Source: an uncultured Acidobacteriaceae bacterium (lineage in GTDB: Bacteria; Acidobacteriota; Terriglobia; Terriglobales; Acidobacteriaceae). Taken from it: a stretch of 64,000 bases of DNA. The stretch spans positions 3,258,860-3,322,859 of the forward strand of contig OY969908.1 in assembly GCA_963704415.1 (NCBI GenBank), in the 5' to 3' direction. The position numbers and the translations under genes were made by a program. The stretch's first letter is position 1. The number at the start of each line of letters is the position of its first letter. This document shows positions 6,476 through 54,948 of the stretch, one piece after another. Under the pieces are notes generated by a model. The model saw only the letters and a program-made list of their open reading frames with translations, had not been told where the DNA came from and did not search any database.

Positions 6476-9310
6476 ATGTTCATCAAAGCTCCGATGATCC
6501 TCTTCCCGATGGCTGTGGTACTGATTGCCAGCCAACTCGCTGCCCAAACGCGTGATCTGCCTACCAGCAAGCAACTGATCGAGCCCGTTCCGGGCGCTCC
6601 CAAGAAGATCAACAGTCTACCGATGTCGATTGCGGTTTCACCGGACAAGCGCTACGTAGTCACGGTGAATGCGGGCTTCGGTACGGCGGAATCGAACTAC
6701 GATCAATCGCTCGCGGTTCTGGATACACAGACGGGCCAGATTACGGATTTTCCCGATGCGCGCACGCTGATCCGGATGAAGCAGACGCTGTATTCCGGAC
6801 TCGCTTTCAGCCACGATGGCACGCACATCTACGCGAGTATCGGGTCGCTGACGGATCCACAAGGCACCGGCAAGGACGACACAGGCAGCGGGATTATTGT
6901 GTATGGATTCGCAGCGGGCAGAGTGACGCCGGAGAGGATCATTCGCCTGCCGCTCGAAAAGCTCGCGCCCGGACACGTCACGCGACTAATAGGAGAGAAG
7001 GACGGCGACCAGGGAGTGCCGTTTCCTGCGGCCATCGAGGTGATCGGTTCGGCGGAAGCGGAGAAACTGCTGGTGGCCGAGAACTACTCCGATGATGCGC
7101 TGTTACTGGACGCGGCGAGCGGCGCAATCGAGCATCGCTTCGATCTGGCGGAGAGCGATGCTGTGCCGTCGACCTATCCAGGCGCGCTGGCTCTTTCACA
7201 GGACGGGCATCGAGCCTTTGTCGCGCTATGGAATGCGTCAGAGATCGTGGAACTGGATCTCACAAAGAATGAAGTAGGCCGCAAGCTGGCGCTACTAAAG
7301 CCCACGAATCCGGTTGCGGCGAGCACGCATCCATGCGCCTTTGCGCTCGCGCCGGACGGTAAGACGCTCTACGTCGCGCTGGCGAATCGCGATTCTGTTG
7401 CGGCCATCAACGTGGGCGGGGATGAGTTCGCTGTAAAGGGCTACTTTGACACGCGGTTGCCGGGGCAAAGTTATTTTGGCGCCGAACCGATTGCGGTGGC
7501 ATTGAATGGCACTGGAAGCAGGCTGTACGTGGCCAATATGGCAAGCGACGCCGTTGCGGTGATCGATCCGCACAAGCTGACGGCGAAGGCCGGGCGCGAA
7601 GGGATGGTGGAGCCGATCGGATTTGTTCCCACTGAGTGGCTCCCGTTTTCGCTGGCCTTTCTGTCTTCGTCTGACGGGGGAAAGCTCTACGTCGCGACTG
7701 GGAAAGGGAAGGGAACCGGGCCCAACAACATGCCGCAGCCGGTGACGGAGAGTTCCCAGAGCATTCATATGCGAAGGCCGTCAACTTATATCGGGACGCT
7801 GCTGTATGGGTCGCTGGCTGCGATGGATGAAGCGAACATCGAGAAGAATCTGCCGGAATGGACAGATGAGGTATTGCGCTCGAATCGCATGAAGGCGGCA
7901 GCGGAAAAGATTCAGTTTGCGGGATCGCCGGAGAGCCGCATCAAGCACGTCATTTACATCATCAAGGAAAACCGCACCTACGACCAAGTGCTCGGCGATT
8001 TGCAGCAGAACGGGAAGCCGGTGGGCAACGGCGACCCGAGCATCACCATGTATGGCGCGACTGTGACCCCGAATATTCACAAGCTGGCGCTGCAGTTCGG
8101 CGTACTCGACAATTTTTTTGATTCCGGCGAAGTCTCCGGCGATGGCCATGTTTGGTCGAATGCGGCCATTGGATCCGATTACCTGGAGAAGACGTGGCAG
8201 CAGTCGTACCGCGGGGGCCAGCGCTTCTACGACTTTGAAGGTGTGGTGGCTGCAGGATATCCGCTCCTGCAGAAAATTCCCGACGTGAATGAGCCGACGA
8301 GCGGCTACTTGTGGGGCGATCTCGCAGCGCACGGCAAAACGTATTACCACTTCGGCGAATTCATCTCGTCGGTTTTTTGCGACGAAGCCGCTGCGAGCAA
8401 TCCGCAACTGGGGCCAATGTTGAAGGGGCGCAGCTGCGCGCACAAGGCTGTGGCGCCCGGGGAGACCTTGCCGGCCGAGTGGGGCGGCGGGGTGAACAAG
8501 TGGCCGTGGCCGATTCCGATGATCGCGGCGAACACGGCGACGAAGCCGGAACTTGTAGGGCATTTTGCCGAGGAGGCGCCGGACTTCAACCTGGCAATTC
8601 CCGACCAGATTCGGGTCGATATCTTCATGCGGCATCTGCAGGGTTGGGTCGCCGACAAGCAACAGGGCAAAGACACGATGCCCAACTTTGTGATGTTGCG
8701 CATCCCCAACGACCACACGGCCGGAACCCGCCCCGGTGGGCCGACGCCGAAGGCTTCAGTTGCCGACAACGACTTGGCAGTGGGCCGCGCTGTGGAAGCA
8801 ATTTCGCATTCGCCGTTCTGGGACGATACGGCGTTTTTCATTCTGGAGGATGATGCGCAGGACGGCGGCGATCATGTGGATGCGCACCGCAGCTATGCAC
8901 TGGTCATCAGCAAATACGCCCCTCAAGGACCCGATGGCGGGGCATTTGTCGACAGCCATTTCTATTCGACGGTGAGCGTGGTACGGACGATGGAGTCGTT
9001 GCTGGGGCTGCCGCCGATGAACAACAACGATGCTTTCAGTTCGCTGATTTCGAGCGAATTTACTGGTCCCGGCGATCAGGCGCCGTTTGTTGCCGATACG
9101 TCCAATCGCGACAACAACCTGATCTACACCGCGAATGAAAAGCGAGCGCCGGGAGCGAGTGAAAGCATGAAGATGGATTTCCGCCATGCCGATCGCGCCG
9201 ACGCACAAAAGCTGAACGTGATCCTGTGGAAGGATGCCATGGGCGATGCGCCAGTGCCGACGCTGTTGACACAGCACAGAGCGAAGGCGCGTCGGGATGA
9301 CGACGACTAA
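6476..9310 (+). CDS. Secreted YncE-like beta-propeller fused to a phosphoesterase/alkaline-phosphatase-like domain
   Basis: Signal peptide, repeated propeller motifs (IAVSPDKRY, LALSQDG, ALAPDGKTLYVA), C-terminal IKHVIYIIKENRTYDQVLGD...EDDAQDGGDHVDAHRS. Confidence 0.8.
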   Translation: MFIKAPMILFPMAVVLIASQLAAQTRDLPTSKQLIEPVPGAPKKINSLPMSIAVSPDKRYVVTVNAGFGTAESNYDQSLAVLDTQTGQITDFPDARTLIRMKQTLYSGLAFSHDGTHIYASIGSLTDPQGTGKDDTGSGIIVYGFAAGRVTPERIIRLPLEKLAPGHVTRLIGEKDGDQGVPFPAAIEVIGSAEAEKLLVAENYSDDALLLDAASGAIEHRFDLAESDAVPSTYPGALALSQDGHRAFVALWNASEIVELDLTKNEVGRKLALLKPTNPVAASTHPCAFALAPDGKTLYVALANRDSVAAINVGGDEFAVKGYFDTRLPGQSYFGAEPIAVALNGTGSRLYVANMASDAVAVIDPHKLTAKAGREGMVEPIGFVPTEWLPFSLAFLSSSDGGKLYVATGKGKGTGPNNMPQPVTESSQSIHMRRPSTYIGTLLYGSLAAMDEANIEKNLPEWTDEVLRSNRMKAAAEKIQFAGSPESRIKHVIYIIKENRTYDQVLGDLQQNGKPVGNGDPSITMYGATVTPNIHKLALQFGVLDNFFDSGEVSGDGHVWSNAAIGSDYLEKTWQQSYRGGQRFYDFEGVVAAGYPLLQKIPDVNEPTSGYLWGDLAAHGKTYYHFGEFISSVFCDEAAASNPQLGPMLKGRSCAHKAVAPGETLPAEWGGGVNKWPWPIPMIAANTATKPELVGHFAEEAPDFNLAIPDQIRVDIFMRHLQGWVADKQQGKDTMPNFVMLRIPNDHTAGTRPGGPTPKASVADNDLAVGRAVEAISHSPFWDDTAFFILEDDAQDGGDHVDAHRSYALVISKYAPQGPDGGAFVDSHFYSTVSVVRTMESLLGLPPMNNNDAFSSLISSEFTGPGDQAPFVADTSNRDNNLIYTANEKRAPGASESMKMDFRHADRADAQKLNVILWKDAMGDAPVPTLLTQHRAKARRDDDD

Positions 9311-41721: not shown

Positions 41722-41919
41722 CTAGAGCGAAGTGGCAAGATCGCTGCTTATTGCATTAAACGCGGTCTTGATCTCAGTCGAAAGGCCCTTCATAGAAATG
41801 ACTGCACCGAATGCAATCAGCGCCACAACGAGCGCGTATTCGACTAGATCTTGTCCTTCTTCCCAATTTAAGAGAGTTACGAAGTAAATATGGAGTTTGG
41901 GGAACACTATCTTCACCAC
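41722..41919 (-). CDS. flp: Flp family type IVb/c pilin, copy 2
   Basis: EEG|QDLVEYALVVALIA prepilin cleavage/Flp motif; 65 aa. Confidence 0.95.
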   Translation of the reverse strand: MVKIVFPKLHIYFVTLLNWEEGQDLVEYALVVALIAFGAVISMKGLSTEIKTAFNAISSDLATSL

Positions 41920-41971
41920 TCTCTAAATATTCAGTCGGTCCTTCTGGCAGTTACCATCGGACCAACACTAA

Positions 41972-42166
41972 TTACAGGGAAGTCGCCAGATCGCTGCTGA
42001 TCACGTTGAATGCAGTGTTGATTTCGCTGGACAGGCCCTTCATGGCGGCAACCGCGCCGAAAGCAATCAAGGCAACGACGAGCGCATATTCCACGAGGTC
42101 CTGACCTTCTTCCCGATTCATCAGGGCCTGCAACTTCAAGTAGGTTTTGAGCATCATTTTATTCAT
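41972..42166 (-). CDS. flp: Flp family type IVb/c pilin, copy 1
   Basis: REEG|QDLVEYALVVALIA; 64 aa; AGGAGA and GGAG upstream. Confidence 0.95.
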   Translation of the reverse strand: MNKMMLKTYLKLQALMNREEGQDLVEYALVVALIAFGAVAAMKGLSSEINTAFNVISSDLATSL

Positions 42167-42597: not shown

Positions 42598-43005
42598 CTA
42601 TTCTGGATGGAAGGTCGCAATTTCGACAATGTCTCCTGGCTGTGCGATGTTCTCCTGAATGCTGCCTGCCGCGAGCTCGATTACGGAATGAGCTCGAAGA
42701 CAAGCTGACAAGCGCCACGGCGGCACGTTCTTACGGATCTTTCTTATCCGATATTCCCGATCGATGTACACCAAGTCGATCGAAAACTGCATACCGAAGG
42801 TGTGGACCGCTTCGCATGGGACGATCCAAAGCCCTTCTCCGGCAGCAAGCCCTTTGCGGCCCAGCAGCCCTCGTGATCGTCTAGCACCACTATCAGCAAG
42901 CTCGACGTCCGTAGCAATTTGAGTATTGCGCGTGATGTTCTTGACTCGCAGCCTCGAAGCCTTTTCGGAAACATGTTTTCGCGTAAACCACTCGCGTAGA
43001 GACAT
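42598..43005 (-). CDS. DUF192 family protein
   Basis: VELADSGARRSRGLLGR..GLWIVPCEAVHTFGMQFSIDLVYID..VIELAAG; AGAGGTGA RBS. Confidence 0.85.
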   Translation of the reverse strand: MSLREWFTRKHVSEKASRLRVKNITRNTQIATDVELADSGARRSRGLLGRKGLAAGEGLWIVPCEAVHTFGMQFSIDLVYIDREYRIRKIRKNVPPWRLSACLRAHSVIELAAGSIQENIAQPGDIVEIATFHPE

Positions 43006-43124
43006 CGATCGATCACCTCTTCTGAGCTTCGTAGGCCAAGCAGCCTGGTTGCCTGGATATTTAGGACGGACCGAACTCACGAAGCGAGTCCGACAATCAA
43101 AAGTAAAGAGCCGGGACTAAAGAA

Positions 43125-43202: not shown

Positions 43203-44852
43203 CTATTGAGGCGACGAACCACCCATACTGGCGCCGCTTCCACCTCCGCCACCTCCGCCTCCTCCGCCGCTACCGTAGCCGCCGCTATCCGACAAGGGCG
43301 TCTCAGGTTTCATCGTCTCGATGAGTTGCTCCACTGGCATCGTCGCCGGCGCGGCCGGTGGGACGATTGCCGTCGTGTCGGGTGTGTTCATAGGAGTGTT
43401 CGAGTTGGGTGGCAGGAACGGCTGTGGACGTTTTGGCAACGCAATATCCGTTCCAGCCGGCACGGGAGTGACGATCTCGGGCGTGACGATGACAATGAGC
43501 TCTGTATTGTTCTTGGTTCGCGACATGCTCTGGAAGAACTTGCCAAGAATCGGAATGTCACCCAGGAACGGGATCTTCTGAAAGGTTTCGTTTTCCGTAT
43601 TGTCCAGCAGGCCACCGATGGCGAAGCTCTGGCGATCTCCGAGTTCCACCTCGGTCTTGACCCGGCGCACCGTAATTGCTGGCTCCACGAATCCTGCGAT
43701 CGAAACAGCGTCGCCGAAGTCCAGTGCGCTCACTTCGGGGGAGACCTGCAAACGGATTGTGCCCCGCGGCGTGATCGTGGGAATGAAGTTCAGGCGGATG
43801 CCGTATTCCTTGAATGCGATCGTGACGGCGCCGCTTCCCCCGACTCCGGCTCCTTGAACCATTGGAAAGGGATATTCACCGCCCGCGAGAAAGCTGGCCT
43901 GTTTTCCATTCTGAGCAAGGATATTGGGCTCGGCGAGCGTTTCAGCCAATCCCCTTAGCTCCATGGCCTCGATGGTGGCTCCGATGTTTAAGTCGGGATA
44001 AAAGGCGAATAGGTTGAGAGGGTTCGCGACACTAAGCGAGGCAGGAGCGCCCCCCGTGCCCGGGGTAACCGAGGGCGAAGAAAATTGTCCGGTTGTCTCC
44101 GAGCCGATCGTATTTCCAATTCCAGTGCTGAACACGTTGATGCCCAGCTGCCTCTCTTTGGTGCGATCGATGCTTGCAAAGCGCACTTTCAGGAGAATCT
44201 GCCGCTCCGGCTCCGGAACCTTCACGTTCAGCAGGTTGATGACTTTCCCGGCCGTGCCCGCAATGAGAACGGCCCGGCTGGAGCTGCTCAAGTCGGCCAC
44301 GGTGCCACGAAGATAGACGTTGCCTCCTTCCGTAGTCACGTTGAGCTCCTGGCCCGGTAGTTCGGTGCGCAATTGGCGCCGCACTGCCTCCAACTGATCA
44401 TGTGTGGCGAAGGTGCTTGGACGAACAGTGACATTGAAGAACTGACGGCCGCCGCCTGTGTCCCACAAAATGAGCGTCGTTTCTCCGGCCAATTTACCGT
44501 TCACGAGGACCTGTGTCGGACTGACGGCGCTGGCTTCGGCATAGTCACCCAATCCGACCACAATGCGCGTGATGGGCCGCGCGAGATCGAGGACGACAGA
44601 CTTGCCGACGGTCACAGATAGGTCGTTCGCGGAGTCCTGGCTGGATGGTCCAATCGGCTGCATCGGCGTCGGGCCCGCGGCAGGCTGTGCGGGAGGCGCA
44701 GAATTCTGCGGCGCCGGCGGAGTTACCTGAGCAGCAGGTGTTCCACTCTGAGCGGCTTCAGCAGCCGCCTGACTTCGGATTGTCATCGGGGCGCATACAA
44801 CGAACGCCAAAATACCAAGACTGGCAATGCTAACGCCGGTTCTCACTTTCAC
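43203..44852 (-). CDS. cpaC: Tad pilus secretin CpaC/RcpA
   Basis: Signal peptide, T2SS-T3SS pil_N-like domain (GETTLILWD), BON-like segment, secretin core (LAEPNILAQNG, FLAGGEYP, KIPFLGDIPILGKFF, TELIVIVTP). Confidence 0.9.
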   Translation of the reverse strand: MKVRTGVSIASLGILAFVVCAPMTIRSQAAAEAAQSGTPAAQVTPPAPQNSAPPAQPAAGPTPMQPIGPSSQDSANDLSVTVGKSVVLDLARPITRIVVGLGDYAEASAVSPTQVLVNGKLAGETTLILWDTGGGRQFFNVTVRPSTFATHDQLEAVRRQLRTELPGQELNVTTEGGNVYLRGTVADLSSSSRAVLIAGTAGKVINLLNVKVPEPERQILLKVRFASIDRTKERQLGINVFSTGIGNTIGSETTGQFSSPSVTPGTGGAPASLSVANPLNLFAFYPDLNIGATIEAMELRGLAETLAEPNILAQNGKQASFLAGGEYPFPMVQGAGVGGSGAVTIAFKEYGIRLNFIPTITPRGTIRLQVSPEVSALDFGDAVSIAGFVEPAITVRRVKTEVELGDRQSFAIGGLLDNTENETFQKIPFLGDIPILGKFFQSMSRTKNNTELIVIVTPEIVTPVPAGTDIALPKRPQPFLPPNSNTPMNTPDTTAIVPPAAPATMPVEQLIETMKPETPLSDSGGYGSGGGGGGGGGGSGASMGGSSPQ

Positions 44853-45700
44853 TGTTGCCCCCCGGGAGAAACAAATTTCTCTTCAGATTTTTGTGCACCG
44901 TTAATCACCGTGATCGTGAATGGCGGCGGTGCAGCTGCCTTTGCCCTCTTTGGCGCGGCCGCCGCTGTTGCTGGCTTCTGCGGCGATTTTCCGCCTGTAA
45001 ACAGGTTGGTCATCTGTGTATCCGGGACGGTCACGGTCGTGGTATCAAGCGGGTTCCGCAAAACCAACTGGATCTTCATCTGGTTGCTTGCCAGCGCCAG
45101 GATTTGCGCCTGTTCGGGTGTGACGAGAAGATTGACCACCTGCACTTGCTGCGGCTTGCCCTCGGCGTCCTTCTGAATGTCAGTGCCGGCCGACAAAACT
45201 TCGATGTTCTGCAGGATCGTTTTCGTTTGCGTGTCTTGACTATTCCCCTGGCCTGGCGGCACACCCGAAACCAGTACGTCGACCCGCATACCCGGAGTGA
45301 CGAAGCCTGCTACACCAACGACCTCATCTACTTTGATCGCGCAGGCGCGCATGCCTTCCTTGATCGTCGCTGCCAGTCCGCCACCAGATCCCATCGGCGC
45401 CAAGCGGTTATCGAGAATCGGCTCTCCCGAATAAATATTTGAAATGACCCCACGGCCGATCGCATTTTTCTTGTCAAGAATGGCGCCTGGCGGGACTTGT
45501 CCAACAAGCTGGATGCTTGTCAGGTCAGTAGGGGCAAGGATCATCCCGATTTTGATGTCTTTGGCAGCGGCAACGACGGTCGTCGACGCCTGCGGCTTGG
45601 CAACATTCAAACGCGTCCCCACCATGCGCCAGACGACGTATGTGCTGATCGCTGCGATCACGAAAGCACTGAGGAGGATGATCAACAATCTTCGGTTCAT
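44849..45700 (-). CDS. cpaB: Flp pilus assembly protein CpaB/RcpC
   Basis: N-terminal TM, SAF domain (VVAAAKDIKIG), RcpC domain (GMRACAIKV, GVAGFVTPGMRVDVL, ILQNIEVL). Confidence 0.92.
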   Translation of the reverse strand: MNRRLLIILLSAFVIAAISTYVVWRMVGTRLNVAKPQASTTVVAAAKDIKIGMILAPTDLTSIQLVGQVPPGAILDKKNAIGRGVISNIYSGEPILDNRLAPMGSGGGLAATIKEGMRACAIKVDEVVGVAGFVTPGMRVDVLVSGVPPGQGNSQDTQTKTILQNIEVLSAGTDIQKDAEGKPQQVQVVNLLVTPEQAQILALASNQMKIQLVLRNPLDTTTVTVPDTQMTNLFTGGKSPQKPATAAAAPKRAKAAAPPPFTITVINGAQKSEEKFVSPGGQQ

Positions 45701-46416: not shown

Positions 46417-47871
46417 ATGGGGACTCCCCCGATTTCACTTTTTGCGGTACCGCCGCGAGGGCACCAAAGACCGTATTCCTTTGTGGTATCGGTCCTGGTG
46501 CACATTCTCGTTGTGGGCATTGTTGCTTATGGCTTCATTTTCGCTCCTCGCATTAACATGCGATCCGCCGCAGACCGCTATACGCTTCGGCAGGTCGACA
46601 TTACTCTTCCCGATCCCGTGAGAAGGCAGAATTCAGCCAACAGCGGGATGTACCCCGGTCAAAACTCGACCGCGCACACGACGTCTGCTCATGATCTTCC
46701 CGCCGCGCCCACGTCGAGTCCTCTCCAGGTTCCAAAGTTGCACCTTGCCGACAGGACGATCGTTCAGCCTGACATTCCGCCGAATCAACTGATTACTAAA
46801 GCCAAGCTTCCGTCCCTGCTGCTTTGGTCGGCGCAGCGGCCCAAGCTGCAACTCATCACCCCGCCGCAACCGCAAAAGCTTGCCATCAACAATACGCGTC
46901 CGGTCCTGACGCGCCCGACGCCCGAGACCCACGTCTCGGATATTCCGATAACATCAACGCCGTTTTCAACGTCGATGCCAATGCCGTCGCCCAGCTCGTC
47001 GACGCCTGTCGTAGTTTCGGGCGCCACCGTTTCCGATCTGCTGCCTGAGACAACGTCCAAGTCCTCTATTCAGCCGAGTTCGGCAGCCATGCTATCTATC
47101 TCGGAAGAGGAGATGGCCAAGGGGACCATCGCCTTGCCGGCTGTCAATCAGACCGGGCCTGGCAGTGAGTCCGGCGCCATGCGACCGGGCAAAGCAGGGA
47201 ATTCTTCCCAGTCCGGCACCGGCGATCCTAAAAGCAACGGTGCCGAAAAAGGTCTTCAGCAAAGTCAAGGTGCGTCTGGAAATTCGCCCGGCCCGGCAGG
47301 GACGCGCAACGGCGCCAATGCTGGAAATGGAGGAAACTCCGGCAACGCGAGCGGTAACTCCGGCGCTGGGAACGGAGGCGGCGGGCAGGGAACCGAGCCA
47401 ACGTTCACTCGGATGACTCTGCCGCAAAACGGTCAGTATGGTGTTGTCGTTGTCGGTTCTTCCATGGCTGAGGAATTTCCGGAGACATCCAGGCTCTGGG
47501 GAGGACGGCTCGTCTATTCCGTATATCTTAAGGTAGGTTTAGCGAGGAGCTGGATCCTGCAATACTCGCTTCCGTCTAAGACAGAAGCAGCCACAGCAGG
47601 GAACGTGAATCACATCGACGCTCCGTGGCCGACTTACATCGTTCGGCCCGGCGACAGCCCGGTCAATGTAAATGCGGACGCCTTGATGGTTCATGGATTC
47701 GTGAATGAAACCGGACACTTTGAATCGCTGGCGCTTGTTTTCCCGCCGGAGTTTACGCAGACGCGGCTTTTGCTGCAGGCGCTACAGCAGTGGAAATTCC
47801 GGCCGGCGAAGCACAATGGGCAAATTGCCCGCGTTGAAGTGCTCTTGATCATCCCGGAAGACGCCGATTAA
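46417..47871 (+). CDS. Membrane-anchored Pro/Ser/Gly-rich protein with TonB-C-like C-terminus
   Basis: TM (SVLVHILVVG), long Pro/Ser/Thr and Gly/Asn linkers, C-terminal ALQQWKFRPAKHNGQIARVEVLLIIP. Confidence 0.6.
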   Translation: MGTPPISLFAVPPRGHQRPYSFVVSVLVHILVVGIVAYGFIFAPRINMRSAADRYTLRQVDITLPDPVRRQNSANSGMYPGQNSTAHTTSAHDLPAAPTSSPLQVPKLHLADRTIVQPDIPPNQLITKAKLPSLLLWSAQRPKLQLITPPQPQKLAINNTRPVLTRPTPETHVSDIPITSTPFSTSMPMPSPSSSTPVVVSGATVSDLLPETTSKSSIQPSSAAMLSISEEEMAKGTIALPAVNQTGPGSESGAMRPGKAGNSSQSGTGDPKSNGAEKGLQQSQGASGNSPGPAGTRNGANAGNGGNSGNASGNSGAGNGGGGQGTEPTFTRMTLPQNGQYGVVVVGSSMAEEFPETSRLWGGRLVYSVYLKVGLARSWILQYSLPSKTEAATAGNVNHIDAPWPTYIVRPGDSPVNVNADALMVHGFVNETGHFESLALVFPPEFTQTRLLLQALQQWKFRPAKHNGQIARVEVLLIIPEDAD

Positions 47872-48118: not shown

Positions 48119-49111
48119 TTATCTTCCTGCGAAGCGCAGCTCGACGTTGCTCTCCTTCAGCCGTTCAAGGAAGCGATCGAGCATCTTCCTGTCTGCGCCA
48201 TTTTCCCGCATTGATTCGCCGCTGTTCGGATCGACGGCCTTCGAGAGAACGAAGGCAAGGCCCAATCCATCGCTGCCCCAGCGGACGACCCGCGACTGAA
48301 CCGCTATCGAATCATCGAGGTTTTTCCCGGCGCTATCTGTTCGTTGTAGCGTCATGAGAACCATGGTCCCTGGGAACCACCGCTCTTCAGTGAGCACGTA
48401 GAAGCCACTAATACTAATATCGGCGATCTGATAAGCGCGAGGGGTGCTGCCCGTCCAGTAATAGGCAACGAGCCCCGGCAGTGGCTGGCGGGGCGCACGC
48501 CGACGATCTGATGAGAGCCAGTTTTGGATCCAGCCTAAGAGTGAACCTCGCTTTCCGGTCTTTAAACCTAAGTTATCCATAGTGTCTTTCCCCTGATCTG
48601 TAGTTTGCATACCTGCCGAGCGAATCTGCAATGAGGCATGGGTAGAGGAGCCGTTGCCAGAATGCTTTTCCTTTGTCGTTGCATCGCTCTGGGAATTCGA
48701 CATGGAAGCAAGAGAGCCCGACAGCCGCTCTAAGCGGCGCTCCATTTCGTCCGCCACGCAAATCACCATCTGATCGCCCGGCTGCGTTTGCGAGGAATAA
48801 ATAGTGTGCGCCGGCAACACCAGTGCGCTTGCCGCCTCGTCCTTCAATGGTTCGACAGTAGAAGTCAGAAAGGACTCGATTTCTTGTATAACTCGATAGT
48901 TACTGTCCAGGTAAACCAAATCCACTGGGGAATGGACGTGCGCTGGAAGAATGCCTCGATAGGGAATCATCCATAGGCCGCTATCCGGCTTGACGCTCAC
49001 TCTATCGATTAACTCTCTTACATAACCTGGGGCAGCGTCGGCTACAGTAACTCCTAAACTCAGGAAACTCTCGCGCGTCTGATTGTAAACACAGTATCTT
49101 TGACCTTCCAT
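48119..49111 (-). CDS. Degenerate DUF192-like N-terminus fused to a PilZ domain
   Basis: YNQTRESFL..VADA..GLWMIPY..VDLVYLDSNYRVI (DUF192-like); C-terminal DRRRAPR (RxxxR) and DISISG (DxSxxG). Confidence 0.8.
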   Translation of the reverse strand: MEGQRYCVYNQTRESFLSLGVTVADAAPGYVRELIDRVSVKPDSGLWMIPYRGILPAHVHSPVDLVYLDSNYRVIQEIESFLTSTVEPLKDEAASALVLPAHTIYSSQTQPGDQMVICVADEMERRLERLSGSLASMSNSQSDATTKEKHSGNGSSTHASLQIRSAGMQTTDQGKDTMDNLGLKTGKRGSLLGWIQNWLSSDRRRAPRQPLPGLVAYYWTGSTPRAYQIADISISGFYVLTEERWFPGTMVLMTLQRTDSAGKNLDDSIAVQSRVVRWGSDGLGLAFVLSKAVDPNSGESMRENGADRKMLDRFLERLKESNVELRFAGR

Positions 49112-49375
49112 ATCTCCTCACCCTTTCCGCGCGACCGCAGGGCGTGCTGCTCTTTAACTAGTCTCTGTTCCCTGTTATTGAATTCAATTCACGCAATGAT
49201 TGAATGGCAATACTTCTAAAGCTACCGGCCGGGTCACGTTTCCTGGAGTCTTATCTAAATGGAACAGTCTAAAATTCTCCCACTCAAAGAAACGAAACTT
49301 CCGGCCGGCGATGCGAACGGTGGATTCGCCGACTGTATTGCCGCCCGGCCACTTTCTCTACTCGTGTCGCCTCCG

Positions 49376-49471
49376 CTACTTGACGCGGGTGCGACGGCGC
49401 TGAATCAGGATGACCAGCACGAGAACAAAAAGCACGCCGGCAGCAATCCGGATGATTGTCGCTGTGTCCAT
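49376..49471 (-). CDS. 31-aa single-TM microprotein, copy 1 (MDTATIIRIAAGVLFVLVLVILIQRRRTRVK)
   Basis: Hand-translated; GAAAGGGGG RBS; 9 synonymous codon differences and 1 R/K change relative to copy 2. Confidence 0.85.
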   Translation of the reverse strand: MDTATIIRIAAGVLFVLVLVILIQRRRTRVK

Positions 49472-49560
49472 TACGATTCCCCCTTTCGCGTGTTCGGATC
49501 CATCTGGGTCACATGGTGCGAAGTGTTGCAGGCTCCACAGGATCTTCGATGAGTAGTGAA

Positions 49561-49656
49561 CTACTTAACCTTCGTGCGTCGGCGCTGAATCAGAATGACC
49601 AGCACAAGAACAAAGAGCACGCCGGCAGCAATTCGGATAATTGTCGCAGTGTCCAT
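49561..49656 (-). CDS. 31-aa single-TM microprotein, copy 2 (MDTATIIRIAAGVLFVLVLVILIQRRRTKVK)
   Basis: Hand-translated; GAAAGGGGG RBS. Confidence 0.85.
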   Translation of the reverse strand: MDTATIIRIAAGVLFVLVLVILIQRRRTKVK

Positions 49657-49742
49657 CGCGTTACCCCCTTTCCATGTTTGGATCCGTCTCACTCACACGG
49701 TGCGCAATAATGCAGGTTTCCCACGGTCCTCACGAATCGTGG

Positions 49743-49838
49743 TTACTTAACACGGCTACGGCGGCGCTGGACTAAGAAGCCCAGAACCAGAACGAAAAGC
49801 ACTCCGGAAACCACTCGGATGATTGTCGCGCTGTCCAT
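49743..49838 (-). CDS. 31-aa single-TM microprotein, copy 3 (MDSATIIRVVSGVLFVLVLGFLVQRRRSRVK)
   Basis: Hand-translated; AGGAGG RBS within the 17-bp gap after the tadC stop. Confidence 0.85.
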   Translation of the reverse strand: MDSATIIRVVSGVLFVLVLGFLVQRRRSRVK

Positions 49839-49855
49839 TGCAATCCCTCCTTCTT

Positions 49856-50770
49856 TTAGTGACCAAATAGAGATTTGAACGAATCTGCCATAAGGATCAC
49901 GGCAGGTCCGAGAACCACAACGAACAGAGAGGGGAAGATAAATAGAACAAGCGGAAAGAGAAGTTTGACTGATAGCTTTGCTGCCTTCTCTTCAACCTCC
50001 TGCACGCGCTTCGTTCGCAGCGTGTCAGAATGAACTCGCAAAGTCTTCGCAATGCTCGTACCGAATTGCTCCGACTGAACGAGCATCGAAACCAGATTGC
50101 GGACAATATCGAGGCCGGTGCGATCGGCCAGGTGCTTCCAGGCCTCTGAGCGAGCGCTACCTGCCCTTTGTTCCAGTGCGACGACACTCAACTCATCGCT
50201 CAGGATCGGCTGTGATACTTTGAGCTCCTCCGCGGTACGAGCGGTGGCCTGGTCAAGACTGAGGCCGGCCTCGACGCAGATGACGAGCATATCGAGCACA
50301 TCTGGCAAGCCACGCCGGATCTTCATCTGGCGGTTCGAGATCTGCCTTCCCAGCCAGAAGTCCGGGCCAAGAAATCCGATGCCCAGGCAGGCAACATAGA
50401 TGAAGAACGGATTCTGCCGGGCGAAACCGGTCAACATGGCAATCAGGCAGAGAAACAGCGGCGTGATCACCTTTGCGCCGTAGAAGATCTTCATCGCAGA
50501 ATCTTCGCGGAATCCGGCGCGGATCAACCGCGTCTGGATGACGGACACTTCCGCTTCGCTCCGGGGAATGACTTTCTCGAACCGCTCCACGACACCTTCC
50601 AGCACTTCGCGGGTGTCCAGGATGGTGGTCTTCAGGGTCTTCTGCTGCTTTACTTGCGGATTGATCGCGGAGCTGATGCGCGCCTGAATGGTTTCGCGAT
50701 AGAAGATGAGGACGCCGCCGCTCAAGACCAGCAGGAACACCGCAAAAAATGATGCTATTGCAACTCCCAT
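49856..50770 (-). CDS. tadC: Tad pilus platform protein TadC (T2SS F family)
   Basis: LPDVLDMLVICVEAGLSL, SEQFGTSIAKTLRV, KLLFPLVLFIFP. Confidence 0.92.
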   Translation of the reverse strand: MGVAIASFFAVFLLVLSGGVLIFYRETIQARISSAINPQVKQQKTLKTTILDTREVLEGVVERFEKVIPRSEAEVSVIQTRLIRAGFREDSAMKIFYGAKVITPLFLCLIAMLTGFARQNPFFIYVACLGIGFLGPDFWLGRQISNRQMKIRRGLPDVLDMLVICVEAGLSLDQATARTAEELKVSQPILSDELSVVALEQRAGSARSEAWKHLADRTGLDIVRNLVSMLVQSEQFGTSIAKTLRVHSDTLRTKRVQEVEEKAAKLSVKLLFPLVLFIFPSLFVVVLGPAVILMADSFKSLFGH

Positions 50771-50779
50771 AAGTCCCCT

Positions 50780-51757
50780 TTACACGTCCATGTTGACGAT
50801 CTTGCGAATAATGAGTCCGCCCACCACGATCATGCCGCCCGCCGCGTAGAGAAGCTTGATTCCGATCTCGCGCGTCCACAGCAGGCTCATCATTTCAGGA
50901 TTGACGAAATACAACGCGCATCCCAGGAAAATCGGCAGAAAGGTAAGAATCAATCCGGTCAGCCGTCCCTGCGCGGTATGAGTCATGATTTGCCGCTTGA
51001 GTCGAAATCTCTCGCGAATGACTTCGGAGGCCTTTTCCAGCACTTCGGCCAGGTTGCCGCCGCTCTCTTTCTGAATCAGAATTCCCGTAACCACAATCCG
51101 CAGGTCCTGGACCGGCATCCGATTGGTCATGTTTTCCAATGCCGTCTTCAGTTCCAGGCCGTAGTTCTGTTCATCGAAGCAGACCCGGAATTCAGTGCCG
51201 ACAGGATCGGGACACTCACGCGTGACCAGCCCCAGCGCGGAATTCAAGCTGTGTCCGACGCGAAGCGCGCTGCAGACCAAATCCAATGCCTCCGGCAGCC
51301 CCTCTTCAAACTTGCTCAGCCGCTTGGTGCGCTTGAACATCACGTAGCCGATGGGGGCAAATCCGGTTACTGCGCCGATGAGCACTCCGAAAAGAATCGC
51401 GCCGGTGCGCCAGTAGACAAGGTAGCCCGGAATCGCAAACGCTACGAAGCACATCATCATCAGGCCGCCAACAGTCCATTTCAAGTCGGCCTGATAGAGC
51501 AAACGGCGCAGGCGCGGCGTGAGTTCGACTTTGCGCAAAGCCTTGTCGATCCAAGGGATTGTGCTCAGCAACTCATTCTTGCGGACGTCAATCAGCAAGT
51601 CGGACATATCGCCCTTCGACTTGCCCGTGGCCAGAGCTGAATCAAGCCGGGCCAGCATTTCCTTGTCCTGCTTTGTGGCGCCAGTGCCGGTTGCAGCGGC
51701 CAGCAAAGCGACTACTGCGAAGACCCCGAGAAATACAACTACGACGATCAGTCCCAT
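50780..51757 (-). CDS. tadB: Tad pilus platform protein TadB
   Basis: LPEALDLVCSALRVGHS, IQKESGGNLAEVL, TAQGRLTG. Confidence 0.92.
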   Translation of the reverse strand: MGLIVVVVFLGVFAVVALLAAATGTGATKQDKEMLARLDSALATGKSKGDMSDLLIDVRKNELLSTIPWIDKALRKVELTPRLRRLLYQADLKWTVGGLMMMCFVAFAIPGYLVYWRTGAILFGVLIGAVTGFAPIGYVMFKRTKRLSKFEEGLPEALDLVCSALRVGHSLNSALGLVTRECPDPVGTEFRVCFDEQNYGLELKTALENMTNRMPVQDLRIVVTGILIQKESGGNLAEVLEKASEVIRERFRLKRQIMTHTAQGRLTGLILTFLPIFLGCALYFVNPEMMSLLWTREIGIKLLYAAGGMIVVGGLIIRKIVNMDV

Positions 51758-51779
51758 CGCTGCTTAGCCCCCTTTCTGC

Positions 51780-53075
51780 TTAATTGACTTCGGTGACCCG
51801 CTCAAACAAGCTCGGTGGCAGGAAAATACCCGCGGTCCGCAGTTGCTCGAGGAATCGCGGACGAATGCCGCTCGGCTTGAACAAGCCAAGCACTTTTCCA
51901 TTCGGCCCGATTCCTTTCTTTTGGAACGTGAAGATTTCCTGCATGCTGATCACGTTCTCTTCCATGCCGGTGATTTCGTGGATGCTTACGCATTTGCGCG
52001 AGCCGTCGCTCAAACGCGTGCACTGCACAACGATGGTGAGTGCGGAGGCAATCTGTTGCCGCACGGTCTTTTCCGGAAGGTTCAGATTGCTCATCGCCAC
52101 CATCGACTCAAGACGGGTGAGGGCATCGCGCGCCGTGTTGGCGTGGACCGTTGTCATTGAACCTTCGTGGCCCGTATTCATGGCCTGCAACATGTCGAAT
52201 GCTTCCTCGCCGCGCACCTCACCGATGACGATGCGGTCGGGACGCATACGAAGGCTGTTGATGAGCAGTTGCCGCTGCCGGATCGCTCCCTGGCCTTCGA
52301 CGTTCGGCGGGCGCGTTTCCAGGCGCACAATGTTCTCCTGGGCCAGCTGTAATTCCGCCGCATCTTCGATGGTGATGATGCGTTCGTTCTGCGGAATGTA
52401 CTGCGAAAGAATGTTGAGGAAGGTTGTTTTACCGGCGCCGGTGCCGCCCGAAATGAGAATGCTGAGGCGGGCACGCACCGCGGATGAGAGCAATTCCATC
52501 ATTTCGGCGGAAATGCTCTTCAACTGCACCAGCTGATTCGCGGCCAGAGGGCCAGTACCAAATCGGCGAATGGACAACGATGGGCCGTCGAGAGCCAGCG
52601 GCGGAATGATGGCGTTCACGCGCGATCCATCAGGCAAGCGGGCATCCACCATGGGCGACGATTCGTCGACTCTGCGTCCAACGCGTGACACGATTCTGTC
52701 AATGATCTGGAGCAGATGGCGATCGTCGCGGAATGCTGCATCCGCGCGGGTCAGCAGGCCGCCGCGCTCGATGAAGACATGGTCCTTGTCGTTGACGAGA
52801 ATATCGGAGATCTTCTGGTCTTTCAGCAATGGCTCGAGCGGCCCGAGTCCAAAAACTTCGTCCAGCAAATCGGTTTGGATCTTTTCCTGCTCGTCAAAAC
52901 TCAGCGGTACCCGCCGATCGCTGATGATTTCACTGATGATGCTCGACACTGCCTGGCGCGCCTGGTTCGAGTTGACACGCGACAGTTTCTCCAGATCCAG
53001 TTTCGAGATCAGAGTGCGATGTACTTCCGATTTAAAATTCTCAAGATTTAGATGTTCCACTTTTCGACCTTCCAA
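51780..53075 (-). CDS. tadA: Tad pilus ATPase CpaF/TadA
   Basis: [24 protein letters not shown], Walker [33 protein letters not shown]. Confidence 0.96.
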
Positions 53076-53102: not shown

Positions 53103-54305
53103 TCAACCGAATAGACTGAAACCTTTTTTCTTTTCAGGCTTCGCCGGCATGCCGCACGCCGTCCGTGCCATGTCCTGGATAGCCCGGGCGATCATCGAAT
53201 CTTCCAGGGCCAGCGGTGTGGCCTCATTCTGCATGCGCCGCACCGTCACGTAATCGCTGGGAATCTTCCATTGCACCGGCCGGGTCAGCGCTTTCGAAAT
53301 GTGTTCCTCGTCCACCCCGCCTGAACGCGGCATGAAGCGGTTGAGCACAATCTCGAGATTGGATCCGCCGTTCTTGAAGTACTCCGAGATGACGCGGTGT
53401 GAATTGCGCAATTCCGGAATCCCGGCCTGCATCACCAGGTAGACCGTGTCCGCCTGATCCACCAGCGTGGTCCCGCTCAAATCAAATCGCGAACCTGCGT
53501 CGACCACCACAAAGTCATAGGCCATCCGGGCAACGGAAACCAGCCGCTCCATGGCTTCGTTGCTCACTTCCACCTGGGGAAATTTGCCCGGGGCCGCGAG
53601 CACAAACAACCCCGAACTGTGCTTGGTGAGAAGCTTCGAAAGAAAGTTTTGATCCATCCGGGTGTAGTTCTGAAGAGCATCCACGGTGGAGAACTGGGGG
53701 CTGATGCCGAGATTCAGCGCAGCATCGCCGAGGGGAAGATCCATATCGATCAACACCGCGCTTTGCGCGCACTCCTGCACCAGCGACACCGCAAAGTTGC
53801 AAGCTACGGTGGTGACACCGGAGCCGCCTTTGCCGCCTAGAAAGACCAATACCTTTCCGCCCGGCTTGTTGGAGGCCATGCGTGTAGCTGGGCGGCGTGA
53901 GGAAGCTCGCGACAACGCCTCGTTCAGCGGTCCCAGCGCCACCGGTTGCGAGAGAAACTCGCGCGCCCCTGAACGCATGCAGCTCATCAGCAGGTTGGGG
54001 TCGTTATTCATCGAGAAGACCATGACCGTCACGGCCGGATTGGCGGAGATCTCTTCGACCAGCTCGAGCGCGTAGCGCTGGTCGCCGTCCAAATCGATGA
54101 TGTAAACGTCAAAATTCTGTTCCATCATCCGTGGAACATCGCCCGTCTTCGAGGGATACGCTGGGAACTCCCGCACGGTCGAGCTGCCTGAGCCGGCCAG
54201 GGCGTTGGCGACAATCCTCCTGCGATTTTCATTCGGGCCGATTAAGGCTATCGACAAATCGCTGACGCCCGCCGCTACTTCTAAATCTTCAAAATGATTC
54301 TGCAT
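53103..54305 (-). CDS. cpaE: CpaE/TadZ-like protein (receiver-like domain plus ParA/MinD ATPase)
   Basis: N-terminal REC-like (CMRSGAREFL), deviant Walker A GGKGGSGVTT, LIDMDLPLGD. Confidence 0.88.
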   Translation of the reverse strand: MQNHFEDLEVAAGVSDLSIALIGPNENRRRIVANALAGSGSSTVREFPAYPSKTGDVPRMMEQNFDVYIIDLDGDQRYALELVEEISANPAVTVMVFSMNNDPNLLMSCMRSGAREFLSQPVALGPLNEALSRASSRRPATRMASNKPGGKVLVFLGGKGGSGVTTVACNFAVSLVQECAQSAVLIDMDLPLGDAALNLGISPQFSTVDALQNYTRMDQNFLSKLLTKHSSGLFVLAAPGKFPQVEVSNEAMERLVSVARMAYDFVVVDAGSRFDLSGTTLVDQADTVYLVMQAGIPELRNSHRVISEYFKNGGSNLEIVLNRFMPRSGGVDEEHISKALTRPVQWKIPSDYVTVRRMQNEATPLALEDSMIARAIQDMARTACGMPAKPEKKKGFSLFG

Positions 54306-54399: not shown

Positions 54400-54948
54400 T
54401 CAACCCGCAAAGGCAAAAAACGAAACCAGTGTCCCTACTGCAATGGCCGGCGCATACGGCATCTTCCGTGCACCGGGATTTGAGAGCGTATGCTTTTTTT
54501 CTGAACGCCCTTTACGTTTTTTCCACCCGAACATCAAATCGCCTGTGCCGGTAAAGAGCTCTCCGACAAACCCGCCCAAGACCGCCCAGCCGATTGCCAT
54601 CACGCCACCCACGATTCCTGTCAATACCAATGCCACAAACATCTGCTTCGGCCCGACCCATGCGCCAATCGCCGCGCAAAGCTTCACATCTCCCATACCC
54701 ATGCCGCCCATGTAGGCGAGAAAGCCGAACAGTAACAACCCCAAACCCATTCCTTCAAGACTCTGGCCGATTCCGATTCCGTGCCAACCCGCGGGAACGC
54801 ATGACACAACGATACCCACTGCCAAAAAGGGCAGCACCAGCCAATTCGGAATGCGGCGGCTGCGTAAATCGGTGAAGGTCGACACAGCAAGAACGAGAAC
54901 AGTCGGCCACCAAGCGATCGAGTGCAACTCTGCCCCCTCATTCCTCAC
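54400..54948 (-). CDS. cpaA: Prepilin peptidase CpaA/TadV (A24)
   Basis: TDLRSRRIPN, GMGDVKL, MPYAPAIA. Confidence 0.92.
   Translation of the reverse strand: MRNEGAELHSIAWWPTVLVLAVSTFTDLRSRRIPNWLVLPFLAVGIVVSCVPAGWHGIGIGQSLEGMGLGLLLFGFLAYMGGMGMGDVKLCAAIGAWVGPKQMFVALVLTGIVGGVMAIGWAVLGGFVGELFTGTGDLMFGWKKRKGRSEKKHTLSNPGARKMPYAPAIAVGTLVSFFAFAG

Follow-up and report, generated by a model that had tools for sequence, protein, structure and literature searches.

Annotation of the 64,000-nucleotide window analysed here (contig OY969908.1 of an uncultured Acidobacteriaceae bacterium; "the window" means this whole stretch) showed a tad locus for a Tad (Flp, type IVc) pilus and, directly behind its tadC gene, a tandem array of three open reading frames (ORFs) for a 31-residue microprotein. 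A sequence-only reading of the window had described three ORFs of 31 codons with a period of 182-185 bp, a strong Shine-Dalgarno sequence each, and a first start 17 bp past tadC, and all of this was confirmed on the minus strand. The upstream genes, which it had named cpaA-cpaE-tadABC, were identified as those of an A24 prepilin peptidase, a CpaE/TadZ-like ATPase, TadA, TadB and TadC.

The features of the array and of the surrounding locus are shown in Table 1. The 17 nucleotides (nt) that separate the stop of tadC from the copy 1 ATG read AAGAAGGAGGGATTGCA. The direct repeat was about 112 nt long, and the start-to-start periods over copies 1-3 were 182 and 185 nt. Copies 2 and 3 differed at 10 codons (9 synonymous, 1 K/R), exactly as had been counted for 49376 and 49561; these two are numbered 1 and 2 along the plus strand but 3 and 2 in the order of transcription. 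Copy 1, proximal to tadC, differed from copies 2 and 3 at 8-9 residues, and a peptide identical to copy 3 was present in two related loci (L011 and L012). The peptides had an acidic N-terminus, MD(S/T)xT, a hydrophobic core at residues 9-23 and a C-terminus, QRRRTRVK, with five basic residues. A six-frame hidden Markov model (HMM) scan of the 64-kb window found only the three arrayed copies of the family, and a scan of the window found no promoter-like site for the array.

Table 1. Features of the microprotein array and of the tad locus in the 64-kb window.
Feature	Coordinates	Strand	Remarks
Microprotein gene copy 1	49743..49838	-	'A-type' paralog (G20, V23, S28), adjoins tadC: MDSATIIRVVSGVLFVLVLGFLVQRRRSRVK
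Microprotein gene copy 2	49561..49656	-	'B-type', ends ...TKVK: MDTATIIRIAAGVLFVLVLVILIQRRRTKVK
Microprotein gene copy 3	49376..49471	-	'B-type', ends ...TRVK: MDTATIIRIAAGVLFVLVLVILIQRRRTRVK
Shine-Dalgarno of copy 1	49845..49853	-	GAAGGAGGG; within the 17-nt gap behind the tadC stop
Shine-Dalgarno of copy 2	49664..49673	-	GGAAAGGGGG; spacing from ATG as for copy 1
Shine-Dalgarno of copy 3	49478..49487	-	GAAAGGGGGA; spacing from ATG as for copy 1
Spacer between copies 1 and 2	49657..49742	-	Duplication remnant; fold z = -0.6, not significant
Spacer between copies 2 and 3	49472..49560	-	Duplication remnant; fold z = +1.7, not significant
GC-rich hairpin, then U-rich run	49285..49351	-	Weak candidate for terminator/3' end of the tad core transcript
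tadC (T2SSF domain, 304 aa)	49856..50770	-	Directly upstream of the array
tadB (T2SSF domain, 325 aa)	50780..51757	-	
tadA/cpaF secretion ATPase (T2SSE)	51780..53075	-	
cpaE/tadZ-like ParA/MinD-type ATPase, receiver-like N-terminus	53103..54305	-	
cpaA/tadV prepilin peptidase (Peptidase_A24)	54400..54948	-	
PilZ-domain protein, DUF192-like N-terminus	48119..49111	-	Conserved gene downstream of the array
rcpC/cpaB	44849..45700	-	
rcpA/cpaC secretin	43203..44852	-	
Stand-alone DUF192 gene of the tad locus	42598..43080	-	
Flp pilin 1	41972..42166	-	G|QDLVEY motif; true pilin
Flp pilin 2	41722..41919	-	G|QDLVEY motif; true pilin

For the comparison of copies, a fixed-length pattern search of 91 sources, namely the window and 90 related loci, yielded 163 copies, with 145 distinct nucleotide sequences among them. 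All 163 copies found in this way had exactly 31 codons followed by a stop. Nucleotide diversity among the 145 distinct copies was 0.16, 0.08 and 0.46 at codon positions 1, 2 and 3, respectively, and the pooled ratio of nonsynonymous to synonymous polymorphism (pN/pS) was 0.21 uncorrected and about 0.12 after Jukes-Cantor correction of the same numbers. Because the variation sits at third codon positions and both frame and length are kept in the 163 copies, the ORFs are regarded as real genes; judged from this sequence comparison they are coding and under purifying selection, which upholds across the whole copy set what had been read from two copies. We infer that they are translated genes of a family of single-pass inner-membrane microproteins of 31-35 residues.

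Residues G12, F15, Q24, R25 and R26 were invariant in the 148 distinct peptides; the search pattern demanded G12 and R25, so that only F15, Q24 and R26 are independently invariant in this set, and G12 was also invariant in alignments built without such a pattern. A further six positions (V13, L14, V16, V18, L19 and L22) were constant at 93-99% (V13 at 93%). Across loci, identity to the window proteins was 74-100% for the peptide, 57-94% for TadC and 34-88% for the PilZ protein. This showed the predicted microprotein to be more conserved than TadC, with nearly the whole of its putative helix core constrained. The AlphaFold2 model consisted of one helix over residues 3-30 (mean predicted local distance difference test score, pLDDT, 93.6) and, together with the sequence, agreed with the description of one hydrophobic helix plus a basic tail. 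The conservation entropy moment peaked at 100 degrees per residue, with G12-F15-L19-L22-R26 as the candidate stripe on one helix face and a permutation p of 0.12.

The family was searched with a 43-residue, GTG-extended reading of copy 2 as the query. At 90% identity 92 clusters were obtained, nearly all of exactly 31 residues, with the consensus MDxxTIIRIAAGVLFVLVLVILIQRRRTRVK. A profile search of 1.84 billion representatives gave 523 clusters at E<=1e-3, from a representative library that carries no taxonomy; the few long matches were TadC C-termini joined to the peptide through frame errors, or upstream over-extensions. In the GTDB representatives (one genome per species), 305 stretches encoded a relative, and the best 80 of these 305 were almost all labelled as Terracidiphilus or Acidobacteriaceae metagenome-assembled genomes (MAGs) from peat, bog and soil. 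The named matches were all Acidobacteriota except one MAG labelled Alphaproteobacteria (L072). This contig (CAWAVJ010000031.1, 'uncultured Alphaproteobacteria') carried an Acidobacteriaceae-type tadC-peptide-PilZ locus with a TadC 70% identical to that of the window, and is probably mis-binned or belongs to a mislabelled bin.

In source annotations the members were 'hypothetical' or bore spurious names driven by the transmembrane helix; Joint Genome Institute (JGI) labels on some members were 'tetrahydromethanopterin S-methyltransferase subunit F' or 'Fe2+/Pb2+ permease'. Many gene callers missed or mis-extended members of the family, and some genomes had no call at all. The peptide had no match above threshold in Pfam and NCBIfam, where only sub-threshold compositional matches to CcmD, MYXO-CTERM, PVV-CTERM and LPXTG appeared. 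Its best match in PHROGs had E = 0.07; PADLOC gave no match, Rfam gave none on either strand of the array, and PDB sequences gave none for the peptide and none for TadC, of which no relative has been solved. By Pfam/NCBIfam match, no homology was found to TadV/CpaA, TadZ, TadA, TadB, TadC, RcpA, RcpC, TadD-G or Flp. The key component classes in a survey of type IV filament and Tad components (PMC6668835) include no such protein. No description of the microprotein family was found in the literature, which together with the absence of a family match agrees with the earlier statement that no described Tad component is like this. In every testable locus the homologs lay inside a tad operon, also where TadC had fallen to about 37-50% identity, and none matched an already characterised family.

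A search for homologs next to tadC across genomes, as had been proposed, showed members linked to tad loci, and the orientation of the ORFs with tadC and their abutment to it recurred across related loci. Loci L001-L090 share synteny, so they are not independent observations. Wherever the TadC match in these loci reached the TadC C-terminus, the first copy began 18-50 nt past the end of the match, and the few larger gaps between tadC and the peptide coincided with truncated TadC alignments or missed copies. The PilZ gene followed about 260-330 nt behind the last copy in Terracidiphilus-type loci. A metagenome scan seeded with divergent QRRK-type peptides gave 80 loci; in all 64 testable metagenome loci a T2SSF gene ended 20-290 nt upstream, with TadC identity to the window down to 42%, and in the QRRK branch the PilZ gene started just 15-54 nt after the peptide. 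Nine loci had been missed by the pattern, and in eight of them the peptide lay directly behind tadC, several with a GTG start.

The most distant lineage, with a TadC 37% identical to that of the window, had a rearranged gene order. Loci L127 and L172 showed the order tadC-(DUF192)-tadE-tadE/F-tadG-peptide, where the peptide (MDPTLIRVVSGVLFVVIVFIILMRRKGMATKRKRI, 35 residues) was the last gene of the operon, while L171 and L173 (both at 7938-8042, plus strand) had a copy (MSPEMIRLIAGVVFVALVGIIIMRRKR...) between tadC and DUF192. The members in L171 and L173 were uncalled in the source annotations, which shows that the family is under-annotated. Over about 170 loci and no fewer than three gene orders, the microprotein gene is tightly and exclusively linked to tad operons, and this persistence is the strongest argument for a Tad-specific function.

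The number of copies in the array was one in 38 loci, two in about 32 and three in about 20. In most three-copy arrays the tadC-proximal copy was a distinct conserved type (G20/V23/S28) that recurred across species; this A-type copy was always first in the array in related loci, and the distal copies were near-identical to each other. Nucleotide identity between copies averaged 0.835 within a locus versus 0.781 between loci. By these sequence relationships, the triplet is one old paralog plus a more recent duplication and not a simple dosage triplication. The proposal of triplication for dosage was therefore too simple with regard to one to three copies and a distinct first paralog, although the RNA depth suggests expression above tadB/C.

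The two spacers of the window resemble each other, as the sequence-only reading had noted when it described a shared leader. Between species the spacers were only about 43% identical, and the sole feature conserved across loci was the Shine-Dalgarno sequence, a purine-rich block 6-14 nt upstream of the start. In 48 spacers no structure beyond that of dinucleotide shuffles was found (mean z = -0.13, p = 0.37). A conserved RNA element in the spacers was rejected on the 43% identity, the non-significant folds and the lack of an Rfam match, and the 'leader', which is neither conserved between species nor structured, is the footprint of a recent duplication. Of 90 loci, 49 had a hairpin with a T-run behind the last copy, against 2 of 72 inter-copy spacers. 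This hints, weakly, at frequent transcript ends downstream of the array; a generic terminator scan found none on the minus strand of the window.

Expression was read as contig word depth in peat and wetland metatranscriptomes, which are samples of communities with unstranded contigs. Contigs covered the array in all four RNA runs (X1-X4), and in three runs they extended from the 3' region of tadC to the array (49519-50133, 49706-50019 and 49439-50009), which supports the predicted co-transcription with the tad genes. The depth of the array was 13.1 versus 4-4.9 for tadC/tadB in run X1, 12.8 versus 2.9 in run X3 and 7.6 versus 2.2 in run X4, while run X2 showed no excess over tadC/tadB. Array depth was 3-4 times that of tadC in three of the four runs. 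The PilZ gene was almost absent from the same RNA assemblies.

The DNA controls were one unrelated run and three runs of study P1, from which X1 and X2 also come. These were flat, at a depth of 3-8, over the PilZ gene, the array and tadB/C, with a sole spike at the tadA Walker region. Because the DNA libraries were flat, the RNA excess of the array is not a mapping or copy-number artefact. At the tadA Walker region (51750-52250) the depth was 10-30 times the local depth in DNA and RNA assemblies, because near-identical sequence of many other organisms maps there, and depth comparisons over the operon are best made without this region. In three runs the higher-depth contigs began within the last 150-280 nt of tadC (50009-50133). 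An internal promoter or RNA processing site in the 3' part of tadC is suggested, which would raise the peptide mRNA above that of tadB/C. The array is transcribed together with tadC and probably above it.

The tad locus of the window is complete and includes true pilins. The Flp_Fap matches of the two Flp genes had E-values of 2e-7 and 4e-7 and scores of 30-31 bits versus the Pfam gathering threshold of 32.2, and this tandem flp pair lies 7.5 kb downstream of the tadA-C core with an oppositely oriented gene in between. On that opposite strand, a 484-residue ORF (46417-47871, plus strand) had no Pfam match; its position between the PilZ gene and rcpC was kept in all Terracidiphilus-type relatives (432-485 residues, L001-L010). 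The secretin C-terminus (43203-43260, minus strand) had a long Gly/Ser-rich tail (…SGGYGSGGGGGGGGGGSGASMGGSSPQ), unusual among RcpA/CpaC-type secretins. The N-terminus of the PilZ protein gave a full-length, sub-threshold DUF192 match (E = 0.012, profile 3-95 of 96), because of which the protein looks like a DUF192-PilZ fusion. DUF192 genes also adjoined tadC or the peptide in the distant lineages L127, L171 and L173. An origin of the microprotein by gene fission from TadC was rejected, as TadC is full length (304 residues, T2SSF profile 2-124 of 125, C-terminal hydrophobic segment present) and the joined TadC-peptide entries of the databases stem from frame errors.

The microprotein is probably an undescribed accessory part of the Tad pilus machine of soil Acidobacteria, and the family is probably dedicated to the Tad systems of Acidobacteriota, comprising Terracidiphilus/Acidobacteriaceae and related unnamed lineages. 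For its role, the reading we prefer, tentatively and a little short of even confidence, is that of a small accessory subunit, N-out/C-in, which would pack against TadB/TadC in the inner-membrane assembly of the Tad system. The orientation is predicted from the positive-inside rule, by which the short acidic N-terminus (MD..T) would face the periplasm and the invariant Q-R-R-R tail the cytoplasm. The near-invariant helix core (G12 V13 L14 F15 V16. V18 L19.. L22. Q24) would pack against the transmembrane helices of TadB/TadC, and the microprotein may also self-associate. This would place the basic tail on the cytoplasmic side, at the docking site of TadA, TadZ or the DUF192-PilZ protein. Such a subunit could stabilise or tune the inner-membrane assembly platform, with one to three gene copies and the extra transcript supplying more microprotein molecules than TadB/C.

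Several points weigh against this proposal. The evidence is confined to a single phylum, and synteny by descent, as opposed to many independent events, accounts for much of the linkage, the three gene orders being the independent part. Contig depth measures expression poorly, the contigs carry no strand information and run X2 had no excess. The helical periodicity of conservation is not significant (p = 0.12), so that a single packing face is not demonstrated. A few-copy platform is not obviously in need of one to three genes and 3-4 times more RNA, and the dosage fits a pilin-stoichiometric partner at least as well.

A more far-reaching version, which we hold to be possible if doubtful, is that the microprotein is a genuine, hitherto unseen structural Tad subunit, for example an oligomeric collar of antiparallel helices round TadB/TadC that would hand Flp to the platform, with equivalents perhaps overlooked elsewhere. 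If this were true, functionally equivalent microproteins may have been overlooked below annotation cut-offs in the Tad or archaeal Epd-type systems of other phyla.

The dosage signals favour a partner of the pilin or of the prepilin peptidase instead of the platform. In such an arrangement the helix would lie antiparallel to the Flp prepilin helix, with a Q-RRR collar at the cytoplasmic interface beside the G|xxxxEY cleavage site and E5 of mature Flp; present in numbers close to those of the pilin, the microprotein could keep or protect the Flp pool of the membrane, or act as a gate on CpaA. One to three genes and an RNA depth 3-4 times that of tadB/C in three of four runs fit a need for many copies. 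The locus encodes two Flp pilins and an A24 peptidase of its own, and with its basic tail inside the microprotein is predicted to run opposite to the prepilin. However, in three gene orders the gene is tied to tadC or tadG and never stands beside flp or cpaA, and in the window flp is 7.5 kb off, beyond an oppositely oriented gene. We consider this partnership unlikely.

The gene that follows the array raises a further alternative, in which the microprotein would be a membrane anchor or adaptor for the DUF192-like PilZ protein, a probable cyclic di-GMP (c-di-GMP) receptor, and would couple c-di-GMP to pilus assembly. The PilZ gene stands behind the array in all Terracidiphilus-type loci, the gap of 15-54 nt in the divergent QRRK branch suggests translational coupling, in L171 and L173 a DUF192 gene comes directly after the peptide, and the PilZ protein itself has a DUF192-like N-terminus. 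It is made improbable by L127 and L172, in which the peptide is last after tadG with no PilZ or DUF192 gene behind it and the L172 operon shows no DUF192, and by the much faster evolution of PilZ (34-88% identity) than of the peptide, which would be unusual for an obligate partner.

Small hydrophobic peptides with a charged end, in tandem repeats and seen in unstranded RNA contigs with which antisense RNA would be compatible, could also be type I toxin-like or other membrane-active peptides (Hok/Ldr/Ibs/TisB style) lodged beside tadC. We regard this as highly improbable, given that at about 170 loci and in three gene orders the genes keep their position and orientation in tad operons, with 17-50 nt to the gene before them. 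Each copy has its own strong Shine-Dalgarno sequence and no promoter-like site, single-copy loci are the commonest, and there was no Rfam match on either strand, no PADLOC match and no copy elsewhere in the window; the spacers differ from type I toxin leaders in their lack of conservation and of structure.

Scarcely credible is an unconventional, very short pilin or other Tad substrate cleaved after G12: although G12 is invariant, V13 is kept at 93%, a hydrophobic stretch follows and the pilus operon includes an A24 peptidase, the peptide has no E at +5, no EY motif and no Flp_Fap match, genuine Flp pilins are present, and its charges (acidic N-terminus, five basic C-terminal residues) are the reverse of those of a class III signal peptide. 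That the ORFs are not functional proteins at all, the repeat being conserved as DNA or RNA or the ORFs being leaders that regulate the PilZ gene, has next to no probability. The ORFs are indeed very short and missed or mis-extended by many gene callers, but third-position variation with frame and length kept in 163 copies largely refutes this view, the spacers show neither conservation nor an RNA structure signal, and the peptide is also retained where no PilZ gene follows in the operon.

What is new is an additional, undescribed, lineage-wide microprotein component carried by a known Tad system. Tad/Flp pili drive adhesion and biofilm formation in many bacteria, and the composition and structure of the TadB/TadC platform are still unresolved in the field. 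The microprotein is more conserved than TadC and was retained in the operon despite several rearrangements, which makes it a concrete candidate for a component still missing from that platform. Its gene, deeply conserved in abundant peat and soil Acidobacteria, hosts that are hard to work with, has so far gone without a name or under a wrong one. Should it bind the platform, the peptide would offer a small handle for structural work and a new class of component to seek in other type IV filament systems.

Compared with known systems, the microprotein resembled several groups of small membrane proteins. In inovirus major coat proteins such as that of Pf3, a single helix joins an acidic N-terminus on the outside to a basic C-terminus on the inside, and inoviruses are associated with a secretin-plus-ATPase export machine. 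The microprotein likewise has a predicted N-out helix with a basic C-terminus inside and a secretin and ATPase machine nearby; unlike the Pf3 coat protein, it is shorter, has no phage genes nearby and has no PHROG match better than E = 0.07. With the C-terminal sorting signals MYXO-CTERM (TIGR03901), PVV-CTERM (NF051874) and LPXTG (TIGR01167) it shares a hydrophobic helix followed by an Arg/Lys cluster, and the sorting or anchor likeness that had been remarked upon holds in composition. It does not hold in score, as all values (12.1-14.9 bits) were below the family cut-offs (15.9-27), and the microprotein has no signature motif or cargo domain and is encoded by a free-standing gene of 31 codons with its own Shine-Dalgarno sequence and ATG.

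Ldr, Ibs, Hok and TisB are type I toxin peptides, often encoded in tandem arrays, and are similar to the microprotein in size (31 residues), hydrophobic helix, charged end and tandem repetition. The microprotein genes differ in their fixed in-operon synteny across a phylum-level lineage and their lack of a promoter-like site, and their leaders are unstructured and unconserved, with no known antitoxin RNA family matched. Like the Flp/Fap pilins (PF04964), the microprotein is a short hydrophobic helix encoded in tandem copies in a tad locus, with an invariant Gly before the hydrophobic core. Unlike them, it has no G|xxxxEY motif (G12 is followed by VLFVL/I, with no E or Y), and its acidic N-terminus and basic C-terminus predict a topology opposite to the N-in prepilin. 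The Flp_Fap HMM gave no match to the microprotein even at E<=10, and with the motif absent and two true Flp genes at 41722-42166, the earlier judgement that the peptides are not pilins stands.

A likeness in kind was found to AcrZ with AcrB, KdpF with KdpABC and CydX with CydAB, which are small single-pass accessory subunits of membrane complexes. As in these, the microprotein has fewer than 50 residues and one transmembrane helix, strongly conserved, is easily missed by annotation and has a gene that lies within, or closes, the operon of its presumed complex. It differs in its one to three tandem copies with a distinct first paralog, is unrelated to them in sequence and would act in a type IV filament machine, a kind of complex without any described subunit of this sort. 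AcrZ, KdpF and CydX form a functional class and not a homologous family, and it is by size, helix and operon linkage that the microprotein is likened to them.

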